A stretch of DNA of 64,000 nt from positions 43,526-107,525 of IMG/VR virus record IMGVR_UViG_3300013901_000007; one strand, written 5' to 3'. Source of the DNA: a virus. Lineage: Duplodnaviria; Caudoviricetes. Shown here piece after piece: positions 701-60,223 of the stretch (positions are counted from its first letter, which is position 1; the number at the start of each line of letters is the position of its first letter). The notes beneath the pieces were generated by a model that did no database searches, was not told the DNA's origin, and was given only the letters and a program-made list of their open reading frames with translations. The translations under genes were made by a program, and so were the position numbers.

Positions 701-3700
701 TTAATGACGTTCACGTCTAGTTAAATTCATCATATTACGTAATTCTTGTGTAAATGAATCAATATTAAATGATTCATCTGCACTAACATTCATAGTTAAA
801 TTACTAATGTTTAATGAATTATCTGCAGCGGTATTATTAAGTGCTGTAAGTGGTAAATTATTTAATGCTGATGATTGAGCAAGTAATTTAAGAATAGATG
901 GAGCAAGCTCTCCTAATTGCCATAGATTCTTTGTAACGTCTGCAGGAACAACACCAGTAGCACTAGGTAAAGAAGTAATAGTTCCCCAAGGAGAAATAAT
1001 TGCTTCAGTTCCTAATTCGTTAACTAAAGTTGGACCTCCAGATAAACCCAAAGAACCAATTGCAGCCTTTTCTACATCTGGAGATTTTCTCATTTGATAA
1101 AATCCTGGTTGAATAGACTCAGCTTCAGGGAATCCCTCAACGGCACCATTAATAAATACTAATTTATTATGAGTTCTTTTTTGTTCAACAACCGTTCCAG
1201 TTTTTGCACCTCTTTCTTTTAAATAACCCATCAAACCCATTGTTCCAGCACCATATGTGTTTGCTTGAACATCGCTAATTGTTTGAGCTTTTGCATATTG
1301 AGGTACACCTTTTTTCACACCTTCATATGCATAATATCTCATCATATCATCATTATTACTAGTTTTTTTTGTATCAACTTCTATATCCCCTTCTTTATTT
1401 TCTTCTCTATCTACTTTATTCTCAACATCATAAACTTGACCATTAAACTCTAATTGTGGTTTAAAAGACTCTGATTTTTCATAATCTAATAAATCACTAT
1501 TTTTTGTGCCTTCGGCAGAAGTATTATTTTTCCAAGTGTTAGCAGCTTCACTATTATTTTCACTGAAATTTTTATAAGTAGTATTAAAATTTTCTAAAGA
1601 TTCATTATATTTTTTTTCAGCTTGATAATATTCTTCTGAAGAAGTACCTTTTTCGTCTTTGATTCGTTCCATTTCTTGTTTTTTAGCTACCAAATCTGCG
1701 GCTGCTGTATCTAAATCGCTAGTTTTTTCAGCGGTAATAGCATTAGCATCTTTTTCGGTTGGACCAGCAACTTTAATTGTGACTTCGTCATATAGTTTTT
1801 TAATTGCTTTTTGAATATCTAATTGACTTTCAAAGGTATCTCCTAATTCTTTTTTAAATGATTCAAAAGCTTCAGACATACGATCAAATTCATCATTATC
1901 TTTAATGTTAGATAATTCATCTTTTTCAGCTTGGAGTTGAGTAATTTGAGCTTCTAAATCAGCTACTTTATATTCTATATTAACAGAATCTAAATTTTTT
2001 TGTGCTTCTTCTATGGCACTTTGATCAGATTCATAAGACCAACCTACCCCTTCTCTCCACACACGTTTTTTCTCGTGTTGAGCATTTTCTAATTTAATCT
2101 TAGCTTCGATTAATTTATTTTCATATTCTCGTTGTGAAGTGATTTCTTGCAAAGCAGATTTTTGTTCTTCCAAGTTCTTGATTTGTTTTTCATAAATTTT
2201 TTGTAAATGAGATGAAAACATATCAAATTGAGCTTCCTTAATAGGATCTTTTATAGTAATTTGATAGTATTCTTGAATTATAGATTGAACACGCTCTAAT
2301 TCTTTTTTACTTAAACCATATTTAGCCATTAGTTCATCTTCAGTTAATTGAGTAGCCGAAGACATACGTGAAAAAACGTCTCCTAACGATTTGGCTCCAT
2401 TGAATAAAGCGGTTGCACCTTTAGGTTTATTCAATTCACTAAACAATAAATCTTCTAAATTTGTATCATTAGTTTTAGTGTTGTGTAATTCTTTACGCAA
2501 TACATTAAATAAAGAAGTAGAACTCATTAATTCTTGCATCATTCCACTTTGATAAGCTACAGAATAAGCACTACCTTTCTTTAATAATTGAGTGGTCATT
2601 GCTGCTACATCACCCGTAAAACGAGCCAACTCTGGATATTTAGAAAGTAAAGTTTCAACGGCTTCACTTGACAAACCACCAGAAGAAGTTATGTTTTGTA
2701 AGGTTGAAGTAATATCACCAATTTTAGTACGTAAGTTTTCCAATCCTCCAATTAAATCACCAAGAGTTAATTCCCCTAGAATATCTTTTAATTGCAAAAG
2801 TTGTTCTCTTGTTACGCCCAAAGCAGTGGCAAATTTTTTCTGTATCTCGATATCGTTATTTTCTATAACTTGATTAAGAGTTTTTGTTTTGCCTTGTATG
2901 GCCTCATAAAGTCTAGTATTACCAGTAATAGCTTGATCAATAAGTCTTTTTGCTTCTTCACTATTAGGGGCTACACCCACAAAACCACCTAAAGCTTGAA
3001 TTGAAGTTTCCACCATTTCTTCTATTTGTTCTTTGGATAAATTACTCAAATCATAATCATTTAAATCTAATAAACGTTGTCCTTGATAAGTAGCTTCATT
3101 TATTGCATTTTGTGCTAATTGTTTATTAGATTCTTTATAAATAGCAACTTCATCTTTAGTACGTTGTTTTTCGGTTTCGGTGAGTTCTCTTATAGCATTT
3201 TCAAGTAATTTCCATTGTTCAGAACCTTTTTCAAAGAAGGTTTGATATTCTTTTAAAAAAGACACTCGATCTTGTATAGAAACTCCTTCTCTAAATCCCT
3301 TCAATACGTAATCACTACGATCACCACTAGTATATTCTTGATAATTTATTTTACCCTCATATGCTTCAAGAAGTTTTTTATATCTTTCTACTTCTCCAGG
3401 ATTATTATAATCAACAGAACCTGTGCCATAATTTTCAACACCTTTAAATGTTAGAACAAAAGGCTTTGAAAAAGAATATCCTTTGGTATATTTTTGATTT
3501 ATATCATATATTTCATCTTCTTTAGATTTAACTTGAGATTCATATTTTACCTTATTTTGAGCAGATATATAATCATGCCACATAGTCTCACGCTCTTCTT
3601 TACTAATAGAAGAAAATATGTCAAAAAATTCACTAATATTAGCAATATTAGAATATTTATCATTAGTAGATAATTCCTTCCAAATTGCTGCTTTTGTTTC

Positions 3701-5373
3701 TTTATTTTCTTTTGAATTCAAGGAATCTTCTAATGATTGTATTTTTTCAATCCATTCAGCATCACTCATTGAATCGGTCATGTCATCAATTTTTTCTGAA
3801 ATATTACTAGTAACATTTTCTAAAGAATTAATTGCTTTAATAATATTATTTGCGGCTTCCACTCTATCGGCACGGGCATCGCGTTCGGCGTCTATCCATT
3901 TTGTAATTTGTGTCATGAATAAAGACCCACCGATTTGTAATGCCATACCAATTATTTTTGCAAAAGGTCCGCCCATTTGTAATGCAGCCGAGGTTCCCCC
4001 AATTAAAGCATTACCCCAAGTACTTGCAGTTTGAGCTTCTTTAGAATTTTCTACCATTTCTCCACTAACATTTTTATGTTGAGTATCTGCACTTATTCCA
4101 CCCATAAGGGTACCAAATGCAAATGACGAGCCCACAACACCAATTTTCTTCATTGTATTTCTAATTTTTTGCCATTTGGTTTGTTCTGTAGGTTGGGTGG
4201 AAAGAATATTCTCACCTTCATCAATTTCTCCACCAACTGCTTTAGTATTATTATTTGTAGCATCAGTATTTTGGCGTAATGATAAAATTAATCCTTCGAT
4301 TCCAGATTTAATACTAATAGTTGAAGTTGTGTTTGTATTAATATTTTTATCGCTTAAAACATTTTTTAAAGATTTTGAATTAGTTCTATTATCTTCTTGA
4401 ATATTCAACATTACTCGATCTAAACCAGTTGTAGTTGGAGATTTAGATTCACGAGTTTCAAACATTAAACCTGAAGATTTTTGCATTTTATTATCTATAA
4501 ATTTTTTTATATTTATTGCTGCATTTTTATTTGTTTTAAAAATTTGGCTCATTCCCAATACATTCCAAAATTTATTAAGCCAAACAGGAACTTTAATAGC
4601 ACTTGATACATTTATGATTCTGGTTACCCATCTAACAAGAGAAGGTAAATGTTCAATTAAAAAAGTAATAAAATTTGTAACGCCAGTCATAAAACGACTA
4701 ACATCACTATTTAAAGCAATTTCTTCCCAAGCCGCAGACAATCTCTTTTGTGCTGCTTGTAAAGAATCTTGATAAGATAAATATTTTTCTTCAGCAGTCC
4801 CTTCAGCATTTTGAGAAGTTTCTAATAAAGAGTGATATTTATCCATGTTTTCCATTAAAACAAGAAAAGCTTCACGTTGTCTTGTACCAGCTGCTGCAGT
4901 AGCAATAGCATTTTTGGTAACATTATCATACACACTCCATTGTGCTGAGATATCTTCCAAAACATCATCAAAATCTCTAAATTGAAGGTTAGTATCTCTC
5001 ATTGAAATACCAAGTTTCTTTAAAACCTTTTCAAGATCATTTAAAGATTCACTTCCAACCTCGTCTGTTTCATTATTTAAATCTAGACCAGTGAAAGCGC
5101 CAGCTTTAACATTACCAAAACGAGATAACATTGACTTTAATGCAACACCAACCGTTGAAGCGCCAGCTTGGCTGACGTCCATGATTGTGGTTGCCATAGC
5201 AATTGCTTGATCAAGGTCAACTCCTGATAATTGAGCTGTGGTTGCAAATTGTCTTAAAGATTCGGCAATGTCGCCTGCAGAAGTTGCTGCAACCATGTCA
5301 ACTTTTGTCAGCTTATCAACAACAGACATCGCATCTACTGCTTCAAGCTTAAAACCTTTTAACATACTTGTTA
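701..5373 (-). CDS. Tape measure protein, exon 2 (TP901-type core and coiled-coil C-terminus)
   Basis: VVDKLTKVDM...A-T-S-AGDIAESL tape-measure core. Joins exon 1 in frame as ...KATEY-L-TSMLKGFKL. Confidence 0.88.
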
Positions 5374-5727
5374 CTTTGTGTTTAACGAAGGCGTTAACTT
5401 CGTCGCTATTTCTAGCCTCACAATTTCTTGTGAGAACAGACTATATCTTCTCCCCTGTAATAACAGTAGGGAGCCACTTACTTCCAAGCCTCACTTGAGG
5501 TGTACTCTCTTACGAGATAGTCGTTGGGGCTAAATCTTTTTCTTGAAAGATTTCTGCCTGCTGATTTTCCAATCTTATCTACTTCACTTCTGACTCACCC
5601 TTACGGGTTCAGTTAGTGAGATAAGCTCTAAGGAATTTCCAGCATATCAAGTGGTTAATTTTTCTAAACATTACTGTTTAGCATACCTGTGGAAATTTAC
5701 ATGTGGTTCAGTCAAGAATTTCCGTTA
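5374..5727 (-). ncRNA. ORF-less group I intron (354 nt) in the tape measure gene
   Basis: Exon ends AUACU, pairing with IGS GGUAU (U.G). Core motifs AUGCUGGAAA, AAUCAGCAGG, CGACUA, GAAGAUAUAGUC. Terminal G at 5374. Removal restores the frame. Confidence 0.93.
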
Positions 5728-45620: not shown

Positions 45621-45765
45621 TTGACGTTCCCAGAATATTTAAATTCGGGGATTCTTGCTTCTACGACCTCGTTACCTACTATCTCCGCAAGCATATATCT
45701 TCGGGTTCGCCCAACCCTATAGTTGGCTAACATCCCGTGAACCTAAAGGTTTAGAGTTTTACCAA
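45621..45765 (-). mobile_element. 145-nt non-autonomous IS200/IS605 mini-element (PATE-like) with TnpB omega-RNA
   Basis: Target TTAG, then left-end hairpin preceded by AAAC. Scaffold GGGTTGGGCGAACCCGAA...GCTTGCGGAG...GAAGCAA. Right end GAAT + hairpin + TCAA. Confidence 0.78.
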
Positions 45766-56564: not shown

Positions 56565-57896
56565 CTACTTTTTATTTTTAAATGGATTATCTTCTTGGAA
56601 TGGAGACTTAACACGAATTTTTGTTTCTTTTTGAGCACGATCCCCAAGTAATTTCATCCAATAAGCACTGCCAGGATTTGCTGATGTCAAACGATTAATA
56701 GAATTAGTACCAAATGAAGAATAATCAATTGCATTATCTTCACCCAAAGTATCTGTTTCTTGTTGTTGAGAAATCCACCAGCAAGCCATGATAGCCACAT
56801 AATTACGGTCATCATGCATTTTACGTGCGACCGAAGGCTCTAAACCATAAGTAACCTTACCTGTAGATGTTTTAAAACGCAGCATAGCAACCATTTCATC
56901 CTTCATTAAATCAGTTTGAATAAGTGAAGCCAACTCTTCTTTGGTAAGTTTATATTCTGTTCCATCATCTAATACAAGGGTGTCACTTTTTGGCGCCTTA
57001 CAAGGGAATTTGATATCTCCTAAAGAAACTAATCTGCTTGTGGCCTCAAAGAATAAATTTCTATATCTCACAGGTTCCAATAATTTTAAACTACCAGGTT
57101 TTGCTGTAGGGAAGGCTTCTACCCACCTTAACATGTCTGGTGAATCTTCATCATAAAGACCTGGATGCTTTGAACCATTTTTATCAGTCCATTCTTGACA
57201 GAGTAATTGAGCAATAGCTGAAGCATTGCCACCAGAACCAGCATCAATCAAAACTGTAACATTTTCATAAGGAACTGCTTTGTTATATCCATTAAAACGA
57301 TAAATAATTTCACGCAGACATTGAACTTGTTCGTCAATTCTCATAGGACGCTTAGAACCGTCGTTATAAGTAATAACAAGATTTTTCATATAAACAAAAC
57401 GTCCATAAACTCTGCCTTTTGCATTTTTGGTAATCTCTGTAACTAATACAGGGGTATTATCTACTTTTGCAGCAGGGTCATATGTAATAACATAATGTTC
57501 GTTCTTTTTACCAGTAGCACCTAGTAAAGGAACGAAATTTTCTTCATTGGCAATAATATCAGCTCTATTAACAACACAATCATCTAAATCAAATCTATCA
57601 AAGATATTGTAATATTCTCTATTACAGGCTATTTCATTTTCACGTCTTTTACGTTCAATTTCTTCTTGTGATAATAAAGGCTTCATTCTTTTGCCATTCA
57701 TTGTAGGATTTAAAGGAATTTCACAATTTAAATCAGCAACAAAATATCTATCGTTGCCAATTAACATTTGTTTTGTTCCTTCTTTGTATTTTTCATAAAA
57801 TAATGAGTTAGTATCTGAAGCTGATCCAACATATAGTCTCATATTAGGGACTTCTTGAGGATATACTTCTGGGTCATACTGCGCGCCCGTCTTAAA
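56565..57896 (-). CDS. terL: Terminase large subunit, exon 2 (nuclease domain)
   Basis: GSAS, REY, YDPA, IDAGSGG, HDDR. Junction QSAD|FKTGAQY. Confidence 0.9.
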   Translation of the reverse strand, partial: FKTGAQYDPEVYPQEVPNMRLYVGSASDTNSLFYEKYKEGTKQMLIGNDRYFVADLNCEIPLNPTMNGKRMKPLLSQEEIERKRRENEIACNREYYNIFDRFDLDDCVVNRADIIANEENFVPLLGATGKKNEHYVITYDPAAKVDNTPVLVTEITKNAKGRVYGRFVYMKNLVITYNDGSKRPMRIDEQVQCLREIIYRFNGYNKAVPYENVTVLIDAGSGGNASAIAQLLCQEWTDKNGSKHPGLYDEDSPDMLRWVEAFPTAKPGSLKLLEPVRYRNLFFEATSRLVSLGDIKFPCKAPKSDTLVLDDGTEYKLTKEELASLIQTDLMKDEMVAMLRFKTSTGKVTYGLEPSVARKMHDDRNYVAIMACWWISQQQETDTLGEDNAIDYSSFGTNSINRLTSANPGSAYWMKLLGDRAQKETKIRVKSPFQEDNPFKNKK

Positions 57897-58060
57897 CTGT
57901 TGTGTTAAACGAATTTGTTAATTTCGCCTAGTAAGGATAAACTTTCAAGTCTTGTTTATCTAACCTCTGCTCGCTGCTTTTACACAAATAAGAATATATT
58001 TGTTACAATGGGCTGACTCACCCCGAGCTTTTACTTCCCCACCAACCGTGGAAGAACATT
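57897..58060 (-). ncRNA. Putative TnpB omega-RNA scaffold overlapping the intron 3' end
   Basis: Stem CUUCCAC-GGUUG-GUGGGGAAG whose loop is complementary to terminal CAAC(AG); position directly after tnpB. Confidence 0.6.
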
Positions 58061-58071
58061 TTATAAATTAA

Positions 58072-59256
58072 TTAAATATAATTAAAAACATTAATAGCAG
58101 CATTTTTATCGCGATCAAATACAAAATCACAGTGATTACATCTAAAAGTTCGGTCTTTTAATTCTATACGAGTAGAAACTTTACATCCACAATGAGAACA
58201 AGTCTGAGTTGTGGGGGTACCAGGTTTAACAAATATAAGGTTAATTCCCAACTCCTCTGCCTTGCGTTGCAAAATGCTTTTAAATAAACAAGGAGAAACT
58301 TCTTGTATTCTACGAATAGCTGCATGTCTACCTATTTTTCCCTTTTCTCGATTTTTATCAAGAAAATGTTCATAAATAAAGTCATCTACAATTATTGTGT
58401 TATAGTTTCGACATAAAGATACAACAGTTTTATAATATTGATCTTTTTTAATATTTAAACCTTTAATATACCATTTTTGCATTTGAGTCACTATTTTCCA
58501 ATAATTTTTAGAATTGCAAACTTTACGCCACATTTTTTTATTTAATTTCGCAATCTGAGAATTAATAATGCTAAAATTATTAGCATTAAAAACAGTAAAA
58601 TCATGACCATCGAAAGAAGTAAATAAATGTTTTACTCCTAAATCTAAACCAATTTTGCCATTTCCTTTTTGCCTATTTTCGCTATTTATATTTTCATAAC
58701 TAAAACAAACAAAAAATTTCCCAGCTTCCTTGATAATGGTAATTTCTTTAATGTTTTTCTGCTTTAAAAAAATAATATTTTCACGTGTACGTACTTTGAT
58801 ACGCCCATGTGATTTGGTCCAAGTAAAATCAAAAGTCTTATTTCCCAAAATAGAAAACATACGTTCATGTTTTTTAGATATCCTAAAACTCTGAGAATCG
58901 TTCTTTTTCTTTTGAAATTTAGGTTGATATTTATCTTTACTAAATGCTGCGGAATCATGTTTATGTTGTTTTATTTCACGATAATAACGTGTTAAAGAGG
59001 TATTAAAGTCTTTTAATGCATTGGTTTTAATACATGTATTAACCAAAAGTATCCAACCATAATCTTCAACATTTTCTCGTATTAACTGATTTAACATCAT
59101 GTCAAACTTAAAGTTACTTAAATGTACTTGTTCTGTAAAATATTGATTTACAACCCAATTCCAAACCCAACGACGCGTACCAAAACCCATATTGAATTGA
59201 TGTTCAATTTCTGGAGTTATATAAATACGCGTTTTGAAAGTTTTGATCTTAGCCAT
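58072..59256 (-). CDS. tnpB: TnpB RNA-guided endonuclease
   Basis: KTFKTRIY...RWVWNW, GLDLGVK, IVDDF, TTQTCSHC...CNHC, DRDKNAAIN. Confidence 0.92.
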   Translation of the reverse strand: MAKIKTFKTRIYITPEIEHQFNMGFGTRRWVWNWVVNQYFTEQVHLSNFKFDMMLNQLIRENVEDYGWILLVNTCIKTNALKDFNTSLTRYYREIKQHKHDSAAFSKDKYQPKFQKKKNDSQSFRISKKHERMFSILGNKTFDFTWTKSHGRIKVRTRENIIFLKQKNIKEITIIKEAGKFFVCFSYENINSENRQKGNGKIGLDLGVKHLFTSFDGHDFTVFNANNFSIINSQIAKLNKKMWRKVCNSKNYWKIVTQMQKWYIKGLNIKKDQYYKTVVSLCRNYNTIIVDDFIYEHFLDKNREKGKIGRHAAIRRIQEVSPCLFKSILQRKAEELGINLIFVKPGTPTTQTCSHCGCKVSTRIELKDRTFRCNHCDFVFDRDKNAAINVFNYI

Positions 59257-59262
59257 AATAAT

Positions 59263-59291
59263 ATTATATCATTATAAACGCAAGCCGTCAA
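59263..59291 (-). promoter_or_regulatory. Intron-internal sigmaA promoter for a leaderless tnpB mRNA
   Basis: TTGACG-17 nt-TATAAT; ATG begins 7 nt after the -10 box; no Shine-Dalgarno. Confidence 0.7.
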
Positions 59292-59611
59292 TAACTTAAT
59301 TAATTTTTTAAGGATTTCTTACTATCTTATAGTTTCCTATAAGCACGGACTATATCTTCACCCTATATTATTAAGGGGCCACTTACTTCGAACGTACTTA
59401 CGTCCTACTCTCAATTGAGATAGTCTCTGGGGCTGGAAGTCTGAGACTTCCCTGCCTGCTGATTGTCCAATTCTATTCTCTTTACTTTTAATACCTCGCG
59501 ATATTAATTAGCGGAACAGACTCTAAGGAGTTTCCAGCATATCAAGTGGTGTATTTATATTAAGGTTTCCCTTAACCCTGACTTTTATTGTATTAAGTTT
59601 TAACAACTCAA

Positions 59612-60223
59612 ATCAGCACTTTGTGTGACGAAAGGTTCGGTAGCATCATAATAATCTCTAGGAATGGTACCAGCTTCGTCATAAATATTAACATTACTTC
59701 TTTTACCTCTAACGGTGACTGCCGTACCCACAACAGCTTGAATGAATGAGCTGTTCATTAAACGACAGAAATGACCCTTGTTTGGGTCGTGGGTAAATCC
59801 ATCTGAGTCAGCGTTAGATTTAGCGATTTCATCCCAAAACACAGTGTTATCACTAACTAAAGTTTTAACCGTATGTTTAGCGATAGATTCCATAGTTTCA
59901 AAAGTTTCATTTGCTTGTCTTGAGCCTGAAGACATGATATGAATTTTTGATTTAGGATATAATAATGCTCTCGCTTGAGCAAATATACTAACTAAAAAAG
60001 ATTTACCAGCGTTTCTGGAACAAACCCAAACTACATATTCTTTATTCCAAGACATCGCTAATAACCATTTTTGATAATCTAATAACGGGATTTGGAAGAT
60101 TTTTTCAACAAATTGTACAGGATTTCTTCTTCCCCATTGAATTAGTTGCACATATCGTCTAATTGCTTCCTCGTCTCTTAAAGTTATCCCATTATCAGTG
60201 ATATCTTCATATACACTAATCAT
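59612..60223 (-). CDS. terL: Terminase large subunit, exon 1 (ATPase; spliced about 647 aa)
   Basis: LLDYQ, SRNAGKS Walker A, RGKR, IYDEA Walker B. Confidence 0.92.

Follow-up and report, generated by a model that had tools for sequence, protein, structure and literature searches.

A tnpB-bearing group I intron without a transposase in terL of an uncultured gut phage, a candidate for RNA-guided homing

Our analysis identified a group I intron, predicted to be self-splicing, that carries tnpB, lacks a transposase and interrupts terL of an uncultured gut phage. The whole element (1,715 nt; 57897..59611, with its terminal G at 57897) and all features given below for this locus and its comparator lie on the minus strand of the window, that is, the whole 64-kb stretch of DNA analysed here. 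We favour, with moderate confidence, the reading that this is a transposase-less IStron-type element in which a promoter, tnpB and the greater part of a guide scaffold lie in the P9-distal loop, and which operates by a scheme of RNA-guided homing.

The split terL gene and its group I ribozyme

Exon 1 of terL (59612..60223; 204 codons), recognised from the open reading frame (ORF) list and a weak Pfam match to TerL_ATPase, ends in ..QSAD, with GAT at 59614-59612. Exon 2 (56565..57896; 443 codons) begins with FKTGAQ and shares 96% identity with the last 443 aa of P0085, an uninterrupted 647-aa homologue with a PHROG match to the terminase large subunit. In silico removal of the intron yielded a TerL of 647 aa, co-linear with, and equal in length to, uninterrupted alleles of 96% identity. 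The ends of the element were set by this restoration of the frame and by the points where the alignments with relatives that occupy other genes stop, and the initial annotation, which had placed a group I intron between QSAD and FKTG, was borne out at these positions, with a fused ORF of 647 aa. None of the sequencing runs listed as containing the stretch was an RNA run. Four sequencing runs, all represented by DNA contigs, contained either the window's own form (two runs) or an intron-bearing relative of ~94% identity (two runs); the joined-exon form was found in none of these four DNA-contig runs, which has no bearing on splicing.

The catalytic core from P1 to P9 (59326..59604) matched the group I model RF00028 over its full length (model positions 1-253; 64.8 bits against a gathering score of 50; E 1e-15). 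This match, obtained by the kind of model search that had been suggested at the outset, was visible only when a short stretch was searched; an Rfam search of the 64 kb with default filters gave just a tRNA, and one of five loci together gave no match, both owing to filtering. The 5' flank CTGAT (59612..59616), formed by the last five bases of exon 1, is predicted to pair in P1 as CUGAU with the internal guide sequence GUCAG (59578..59582), with U-G at the splice site. The predicted P1 is supported because, in related elements, the internal guide co-varies with ten different flanks at positions -5 and -4 (CTGAT/GTCAG, ACGAT/GTCGT, ATGAT/GTCAT, TTGAT/GTCAA and four more types), the pairing being maintained via two-sided changes at ten sites.

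The stem after P9 (P9.1) consists of a 5' strand (59318..59324) and a 3' strand (57929..57935) that form an exact 7-bp complement (59324-59318 with 57929-57935), and it loops out the promoter, the intact tnpB and structured RNA, in agreement with the initial description of this stem. Taken by itself, a 7-bp complement does not exceed chance expectation (51 of 300 shuffles), and single AT-rich sequences were not significant; a complementary pair of 4-12 bp, of other sequence, is nevertheless present at the equivalent two positions in every relative. We accept the stem because of this shared position and because of a capped hairpin in an ORF-less paralogous group I intron, which served as comparator and is located in the tape-measure gene (5374..5727; RF00028, 62.9 bits). 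The core of this paralogue is 68% identical to that of the terL intron over 240 nt, and its 3' part comprises P9, the capped hairpin, a last hairpin and a similar tail. It is preceded by ..ACT and has a matching internal guide, which indicates that the GA of the flank is not required by the ribozyme.

The tnpB cassette and its omega-RNA-like scaffold

The tnpB gene (58072..59256; 394 aa) matched HTH_OrfB_IS605, OrfB_IS605 and Cas12f1-like_TNB in Pfam, all above the cut-off, as well as PHROG 506 (E 2e-62). It was the sole ORF with a family match in the intron (ORF list and Pfam), where no other nuclease ORF was found; Pfam detected no HNH, GIY-YIG, LAGLIDADG, PD-(D/E)xK or EDxHD domain inside the intron, and besides tnpB and its overlapping frames the element contained no ORF of at least 40 aa. 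The protein aligned end to end with the structures of ISDra2 TnpB with its omega-RNA (8exa, 8h1j), although the similarity is distant only (phmmer E-value 5e-14). D205 and D383 align to the RuvC-I and RuvC-III aspartates of ISDra2 TnpB (D191 and D361), the zinc finger is shared, and the position of Glu278 is occupied by D291. D205, D291 and D383, together with four zinc-finger Cys residues, were invariant in 36 homologues with identities down to 34%. The dN/dS of tnpB was 0.09 in comparison with L003, the other intron-bearing terL allele, and purifying selection on TnpB is thus strong. An internal sigma-70-type promoter (59263..59291; TTGACG, 17 nt, TG-TATAAT; 11 of 12 consensus bases) is situated directly upstream, with 6 nt between the end of the -10 box and the tnpB ATG. 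Identical promoter boxes and the same 6-nt spacing were kept in 8 elements, implying that the tnpB mRNA would be leaderless.

The Asp at RuvC-II (D291 for Glu278), invariant in the homologues, counts against the homing reading. This residue could be accommodated by an alternative in which TnpB no longer cuts DNA and is retained for its action on RNA or in regulation, such as the tuning of terL splicing or cleavage-free RNA-guided binding, and the same alternative fits the lack of a matching empty target among the alleles described below and published work in which IStron splicing is repressed by TnpB and by the structure of the omega-RNA. We nonetheless consider a non-cutting TnpB unlikely, since the protein is of full length and has lost neither any of the three TnpB domains in Pfam nor the zinc-finger domain at its C terminus, and since the homologues show no change in the zinc finger or at any of the three acidic RuvC residues. 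Known nuclease-dead TnpB derivatives have lost RuvC residues.

Downstream of tnpB, the RNAalifold consensus predicted an omega-RNA-like scaffold (57897..58062) with four helices, namely a first hairpin (about 58056-58035; loop 58047-58043), a closing helix (58028-58025 / 57972-57969), a further hairpin (57960-57936) and a last hairpin (57926-57910), the latter followed by a tail (57909-57897). Changes on both sides were observed in 23 of the 28 pairs, and 96.9% of the scaffold cells were paired, compared with 40-50% when the partners were slid. The covariance model of the scaffold matched four distant relatives with the same ..AACAG end, and in all 11 related elements the scaffold ends in ..AACAG exactly at the element boundary (3' splice site). 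This architecture is consistent with the published plan of stem-loops and a first-loop pseudoknot. The candidate partners of such a pseudoknot, a GGUU loop and, within the tail, two AAC triplets, are invariant, but only three pairs are invariant, and of the two possible registers one lets the variable pair form in 7 of 11 sequences and the other in 9 of 11; this counts against the homing reading. The hairpin with a GGUUG loop that the initial annotation had described exists, as attested by compensatory changes in relatives, whereas its proposed pairing to 57902-57899 is possible as one of two equal registers. At E up to 10, no Rfam family besides RF00028 matched the 3' RNA, and a 19-nt scaffold motif had no match in IMG/VR and two matches, probably by chance, in bacterial MAGs. 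An IS605-like mini-element (45621-45765) was considered as a second guide for TnpB and rejected, as the scaffold covariance model did not match it. The first 18 nt of exon 2 (57879..57896) are the predicted omega-RNA guide and also the predicted target in intron-less alleles, and CTGAT is the predicted TAM; the positions initially assigned to the guide and the TAM-like flank were corroborated by ten related elements, as were the anatomy and both ends of the intron.

Spread of the intron and rival explanations

The 11 related elements were found on phage-like contigs in ten different phage genes, and their excision restores the frame in every case. The flanks (CTGAT in four, TTGAT in two, and ATGAT, ACGAT, CAGAT, GGGAT and CAGGT) end in GAT in 10 of 11 elements and are akin to TTGAT, being looser at -5 and -4, and the 3' terminus is ACAG in all 11, with three of four bases in common with TCAG. 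Homing alone leaves the arrival at ten different genes unexplained, an observation that counts against the homing reading. A TnpB profile scan of IMG/VR returned ten loci, the closest two of which (L012 and L019) encode a TnpB of 37% identity, and a single-protein TnpB scan of the same database gave no matches. Among 50,697 phage records, the best TnpB match was 31% identical, a DNA search gave only matches to about 50 nt of the group I core in Staphylococcus and Vibrio phages, and tblastn with TerL exon 2 found no match. The 107.5-kb record that contains the window has one copy of the element.

Nucleotide identity between the window and L003 was 91% in the ribozyme, 86% in tnpB and 91% in the scaffold, compared with 75% and 64% in the terL exons, and dS was 0.71 in tnpB and saturated in the exons. 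The terL of the window is 93% identical to one intron-less allele and 64-75% identical to the other intron-bearing allele, and one cluster at an identity of at least 90% contains terL both split and whole. Since the intron is closer than the exons, and is present in some and absent from others of a set of alleles with at least 90% identity, we conclude that it moved horizontally to the terL site; the survey of terL alleles proposed in the initial annotation thus found close alleles of both kinds. The view that the element no longer moves, being the relic of an ancient IStron passed down vertically within the phage group and precisely lost in some lineages, is disfavoured and very improbable, because a tnpB dS of 0.71 against saturated flanking-exon dS in the same pair, the greater likeness of terL to an intron-less allele (93% against 64-75%) and the strong purifying selection on TnpB and the 3' RNA outweigh the one fixed place per phage lineage of each relative and the fact that a perfect empty site was not seen. 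The gene that houses the intron is much older than the intron itself in two phages, so that active transfer is needed, which also argues against a non-cutting TnpB.

From -9 to +14, no base differs between the two alleles that carry the intron, which places this stretch in the top 1% of 24-nt windows in terL for conservation. The five distinct empty terL alleles that could be read all depart from the predicted TAM and target: each has A at -4, two have C at -1, and mismatches over +1..+16 number two to six, which counts against the homing reading. No perfectly matching (susceptible) site was present among these five, and a search with a degenerate fused-exon pattern found no empty site in IMG/VR or JGI metagenomes. 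Differences at the junction in the pooled empty alleles ranked in the top 4-9% of windows, an excess that is modest and only suggestive. The RNA-guided homing put forward initially accordingly divides into a spread of the intron to the terL site, which stands, and a cleavage by TnpB, which is a prediction set against five mismatching empty alleles.

RNA-guided homing is, we infer, the most likely means by which the intron moves between phage genomes. In the proposed scheme, the last hairpin and 13-nt tail of the intron would double as the 3' end of the scaffold. One transcript, the terL pre-mRNA with the entire ribozyme, would be spliced to give TerL, and another, initiated at the internal promoter, would run as a leaderless tnpB mRNA through the scaffold into exon 2, its 3' end constituting a guide with the same sequence as the first bases of exon 2. 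Loaded with this RNA, TnpB could then cut terL where ..CTGAT adjoins exon 2 sequence, as in intron-less co-infecting relatives. Repair of the break from the intron-bearing genome would copy the intron in (homing), and failed repair would leave the rival phage without its packaging gene. A plausible but tentative extension is that these elements form a phage IStron-like lineage that has dispensed with transposition and consists purely of RNA-guided homing introns, combining an Asp-Asp-Asp TnpB with an exon 2 guide and essential-gene targets; a ribozyme-free leaderless transcript may remove the competition between guide and splicing, and synonymous changes in the TAM and seed may make empty alleles resistant.

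A competing account, which we judge as improbable as a non-cutting TnpB, is an IS200/IS605-type transposon mobilised by a Y1 TnpA supplied in trans by the host or another element, with TnpB only restoring excised copies and with ordinary phage recombination spreading the intron among terL alleles. Ten insertion sites require some route to new sites, and the flank ..GAT, which reads TTGAT in two members of this family, is also what group A IStrons and IS605 elements target; the last hairpin could moreover be a right-end DNA hairpin, as covariation is blind to RNA versus single-stranded DNA. However, homologues in the form of an ordinary IS with TnpA inside the intron loop, which the initial annotation had named as evidence against its own view, were not encountered (0 of 11), as none of the 11 elements has tnpA or a tnpA fragment and the gap between the core and tnpB is only about 70 nt. 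The Y1 part of the initial claim that TnpA is missing held, since PF01797 had no match in the 107.5-kb record or in three related virus records; for other types of TnpA, the claim is reduced to the lack of a further ORF of at least 40 aa in the element. The terminus ACAG, in place of the TCAG of group A, also speaks against a trans-mobilised transposon, and proteins represented on multiple contigs were always at one place, so no recent transposition is seen.

Relation to known systems and significance

The element is a phage-borne variant of known IStron elements. Group A IStrons (CdISt1/CdiIStrons of Clostridioides difficile; PMC4227781; 10.1101/2023.11.20.567912) likewise have a 5' group I ribozyme, a downstream tnpB, an omega-RNA in the tnpB 3' UTR, and splice sites that are the element ends; they interrupt protein genes unrelated to one another, often lack TnpA and are inserted 3' of a TTGAT-like pentanucleotide with a final T. 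In contrast, a tnpA fragment is found in none of the 11 members here, so the tie to IS605 consists only of TnpB and the flank. The members described here further differ in their ACAG terminus, a flank that varies at -5/-4 with a co-varying internal guide, a location in essential virion and replication genes of phage genomes, a conserved leaderless promoter directly upstream of tnpB, and the RuvC-II Asp. Among group B (IS607-type) IStrons, CbISt3 and CbISt4 of the C. botulinum phages c-st and D-1873 and the 'ORF B only' CsISt1 (PMC4227781) are precedents for phage-borne and ORF-B-only elements. Experiments with CboIStron revealed that TnpB uses a guide which continues beyond the 3' splice site, and that the RNA can either be spliced or fold into the omega-RNA but not both (10.1101/2023.11.20.567912; PMC13521648). 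Group B elements follow G-rich motifs, with an exon end in G and a serine TnpA, whereas here GAT precedes the splice site and the last exon base is U.

Classical phage group I introns with a homing endonuclease (T4 td/I-TevI) resemble the terL intron in having a nuclease gene in a peripheral post-P9 loop, an essential host gene, presence/absence polymorphism in close relatives and an identical flanking exon among intron-bearing alleles. The proposed benefit, phage-versus-phage competition, has a parallel in the PhiPA3 intron endonuclease gp210, which interferes with a co-infecting phage (PMC11620839). The nuclease here is instead TnpB, for which target choice by RNA pairing and a short TAM is expected. 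With ISDra2, the terL element would share a TTGAT-type TAM, a scaffold reaching the right end and a flank-derived guide, all three as predicted here, and it differs by the intron and the absence of TnpA.

The IStron/TnpB model has already been published (10.1101/2023.11.20.567912), IStrons of the 'ORF B only' kind and IStrons carried by phages have been described (PMC4227781), and a 2026 review considers that TnpA-less IStrons could spread via intron homing (PMC13565253); the novelty implied by the initial annotation is lower in this light. The concept is in the literature, and the value of the locus is that of a test case, with no new principle. As such it is useful in offering close terL alleles with and without the intron, empty alleles whose deviations from the predicted TAM and seed are defined, and, in the same genome, an ORF-less sister intron that represents the ribozyme without the cassette. 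If TnpB drives homing, the target choice of an intron would be set by RNA pairing and not by a protein DNA-binding surface. The colonisation of ten essential phage genes by one family would then be explained, with the guide re-programmed automatically at each move, and these introns would constitute a natural system for RNA-guided gene drive and phage-versus-phage interference.

Split terL gene and its ribozyme

The IMG/VR virus record containing the window spans 107.5 kb, with an estimated completeness of 78%. On the minus strand, an exonuclease-like gene, a 387-aa gene, terL, a 136-aa gene, and the portal gene follow one another. The proposal in the initial annotation that an intron splits terL was confirmed: exon 1 (60223-59612, minus strand) ends in ..QSAD and reads on for three codons before a stop, exon 2 (57896-56565, minus strand) starts with FKTGAQ, and the joined exons form 647 codons. 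Uninterrupted 647-aa homologues in the protein database (P0085) show 96% identity over exon 2 and match terminase-large-subunit PHROGs. The Rfam group I model matched end to end at 59604-59326 (minus strand; 64.8 bits against a gathering score of 50), the exon end CUGAU, with its terminal U, pairs with the internal guide GUCAG at 59582-59578, and the last base of the intron is G (57897). Searching all 64 kb, or several loci at once, loses the Rfam match to the speed filters. In each of the four metagenome runs, several unrelated contigs matched over only ~35 nt (59326-59360), a part of the core that runs up to and through P9; the same samples therefore contain many other such group I introns.

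A protein search revealed a TnpB family with 34-87% identity to the window TnpB, and 11 elements were compared, namely that of the window and those of ten relatives whose surrounding DNA was read. One relative, L003, carries this element at the identical position in terL; the remaining nine occupy nine other genes, all on phage-like contigs, and the genes near these nine include those for RNA polymerase, a DnaB-like helicase, tail tape-measure protein, and DNA polymerase. Alignments of the relatives to the window begin just after ..GAT and end at ..AACAG, with no match beyond, and in silico excision at these limits restored an open frame in all 11 elements. The 5′ flank was ..GAT in 10 of 11 elements (CTGAT, 4; TTGAT, 2; ATGAT, ACGAT, CAGAT, and GGGAT, 1 each) and CAGGT in the other. 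Flank and internal guide co-vary, position -4 showing all four bases, each with a Watson-Crick partner in the guide; this co-variation is direct comparative evidence for the predicted P1 and thereby supports the splice site. In 8 of 11 elements, or 7 of 10 sites, the insertion lies between codons (phase 0), the preceding GAT being read in frame as Asp. Five relatives (L004, L024, L025, L033, and L012) have an extra block of ~85-95 nt just 3′ of the 5′ splice site, which is absent from the window's element. In L004, this block lies at 3534-3650, between the splice site and the internal guide, and the guide is found at +108 to +115 in these five relatives versus +10 to +45 otherwise. Within the block are a hairpin with a co-varying stem and a sequence that nearly repeats the start of the intron; it may represent either an extension of P1/P2 or a hairpin resembling a left end.

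The tnpB cassette and its structured RNA

The promoter ahead of tnpB (TTGACG, 17 nt, TG-TATAAT) matches the consensus at 11 of 12 positions, and eight elements have identical boxes, with the -10 box again 6 nt from the ATG; such spacing would give a leaderless tnpB transcript. The 394-aa TnpB contains three TnpB Pfam domains, all above cut-off, and aligns end to end with structures of ISDra2 TnpB. D205 and D383 align with the first and third RuvC residues of ISDra2 TnpB, and the RuvC-II position is occupied by Asp291 (codon 58386-58388, minus strand) versus Glu278 in ISDra2. The three acidic RuvC residues and four zinc-finger cysteines are invariant among 36 homologues, down to 34% identity, and the dN/dS of tnpB between the window and L003 is 0.09.

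The 7-bp stem initially proposed to enclose the cassette (59324-59318 with 57935-57929) is an exact complement, although as a single sequence it is nothing unusual given the AT-rich composition. In every relative, the bases directly after P9 can pair with those directly before the last hairpin, and the stem sequences vary (12 bp in L030; a different 7 bp with an extension in L033). A sister intron, an ORF-less group I intron in the tape-measure gene (5374-5727, minus strand; RF00028, 62.9 bits), shares 68% identity with the terL core over 240 nt; after P9 it has a 4-bp hairpin with a GAAA cap, a last hairpin whose loop resembles that of the terL intron, and a similar tail. The stem after P9 is thus credible, given the pairing in all relatives despite differing sequences and the hairpin of the sister intron, and the terL element looks like a sister-type intron whose small hairpin carries a ~1.38-kb cassette in its loop. 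Ribozyme and putative guide scaffold have the last hairpin and tail in common. Upstream of the sister intron the exon ends in ..ACT, to which its internal guide is matched, indicating from this single intron that the ribozyme does not need GA at -3/-2; GA at these positions is conserved in the tnpB-bearing elements. The sister intron may have arisen by deletion of tnpB, or it may represent the ancestral form.

RNAalifold analysis of seven sequences revealed a structured RNA of four helices at 58062-57897 (minus strand). The derived covariance model matched RNA in four more distant relatives outside the training set, every match ending exactly at ..AACAG. Across the 11 sequences, in a model-fitted alignment that somewhat flatters the figures, pairing was possible in 96.9% of cells versus 40-50% with slid partners, and 23 of 28 pairs showed changes on both sides. 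The layout, with a first stem-loop, further stem-loops, and a tail beside the predicted guide, is the same as the published omega-RNA plan of IStron and IS605 elements (10.1101/2023.11.20.567912). A pseudoknot between the first-hairpin loop and the tail, also proposed initially, is plausible from comparison: the GGUU loop and two AAC triplets in the tail are invariant, but the partner is unsettled, the single variable pair forming in 7 of 11 sequences in the initially proposed register versus 9 of 11 in the other. Separately, an IS605-like mini-element at 45621-45765 (minus strand) ends in TCAA; the covariance model of the window TnpB's scaffold did not detect it, and this TnpB probably does not serve it.

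Horizontal movement and empty terL alleles

Nucleotide identity between the window and L003 was 75% and 64% for terL exons 1 and 2, versus 91% for the ribozyme, 86% for tnpB, and 91% for the scaffold; dS was 0.71 for tnpB and saturated for exon 1. Window terL shares 93.4% identity with the intron-less allele L036, and one cluster (at least 90% identity) contains both split and whole forms. Split terL appears there as ORFs of 207 aa and 400-425 aa, the most frequent of which occur on 21 and 19 contigs, and whole terL as proteins of 647-648 aa. Sequence comparison thus indicates that the terL intron has moved. An intron younger than its host gene at one site in diverged phages is the expected product of homing, and the intron encodes no nuclease candidate other than TnpB. 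From -9 to +14 the intron-bearing alleles (window and L003) do not differ, which places this stretch in the most conserved 1% of the gene's 24-nt windows; the identity fits either a co-conversion tract or constraint from P1, TAM, and guide. Homing explains spread at one site and leaves arrival at ten sites unaccounted for; the latter may have involved a trans-acting TnpA, reverse splicing, or off-target break repair.

The initial annotation had interpreted TnpB as an RNA-guided homing endonuclease, with CTGAT at the exon 1 end as the TAM and the start of exon 2 (57896-57879) as the target. This interpretation is reasonable and partly supported, horizontal spread to the terL site being in its favour. 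None of the five distinct empty alleles read (L036, L039, L045/46, L047, and L034) carries the predicted TAM and target. At position -4, A replaces T in all five, and each shows another two to six differences between +1 and +16. GAC replaces GAT in L045/46 and L047, so that both the U of P1 and the last predicted TAM base are lost, and L045 has a synonymous change in each of six consecutive codons spanning the junction. A search for a perfect empty site yielded no match in IMG/VR or JGI metagenomes. The differences could reflect nuclease-selected resistance, a reading that is only a lead because, relative to the rest of the gene, the junction falls only in the top 4-9% of windows (alleles pooled).

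In L034, a complete 131-kb relative, terL (2886-3219, 4616-4799) is intact at the intron site; its ORF lacks ~110 N-terminal codons, a stop precedes the end of the match, and the gene may be interrupted at other places. Many proteins of 421 aa (P0177-P0196) align to just 49% of exon 2, with 58-75% identity, which points to a further split position in the terL genes of related phages.

Relation to known IStrons

In architecture and proposed mechanism, the element corresponds to an IStron. The insertion site of group A IStrons follows a TTGAT-like pentanucleotide. Among IStrons in general, many have lost ORF A (CsISt1 being 'ORF B only'), and CbISt3 and CbISt4 reside in C. botulinum phages (PMC4227781). 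In an IS607-type IStron, TnpB was shown to use a guide extending past the 3′ splice site, and splicing competes with guide folding (10.1101/2023.11.20.567912; PMC13521648). A 2026 review suggested that intron homing could spread TnpA-less IStrons, provided that TnpB remains active (PMC13565253), and an intron-encoded protein endonuclease of PhiPA3 has been shown to interfere with a co-infecting phage (PMC11620839). The initially noted absence of TnpA extends to every family member examined (n = 11), from which tnpA and its remnants are missing. This family differs from known IStrons in this respect, as well as in its ACAG 3′ terminus, a flank loose at -5/-4 with a co-varying guide, a putatively leaderless promoter before tnpB, and an Asp as the RuvC-II residue. 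The terL element is a phage-adapted IStron variant rather than a new category, and its chief value is that RNA-guided intron homing can be tested on a well-documented case.
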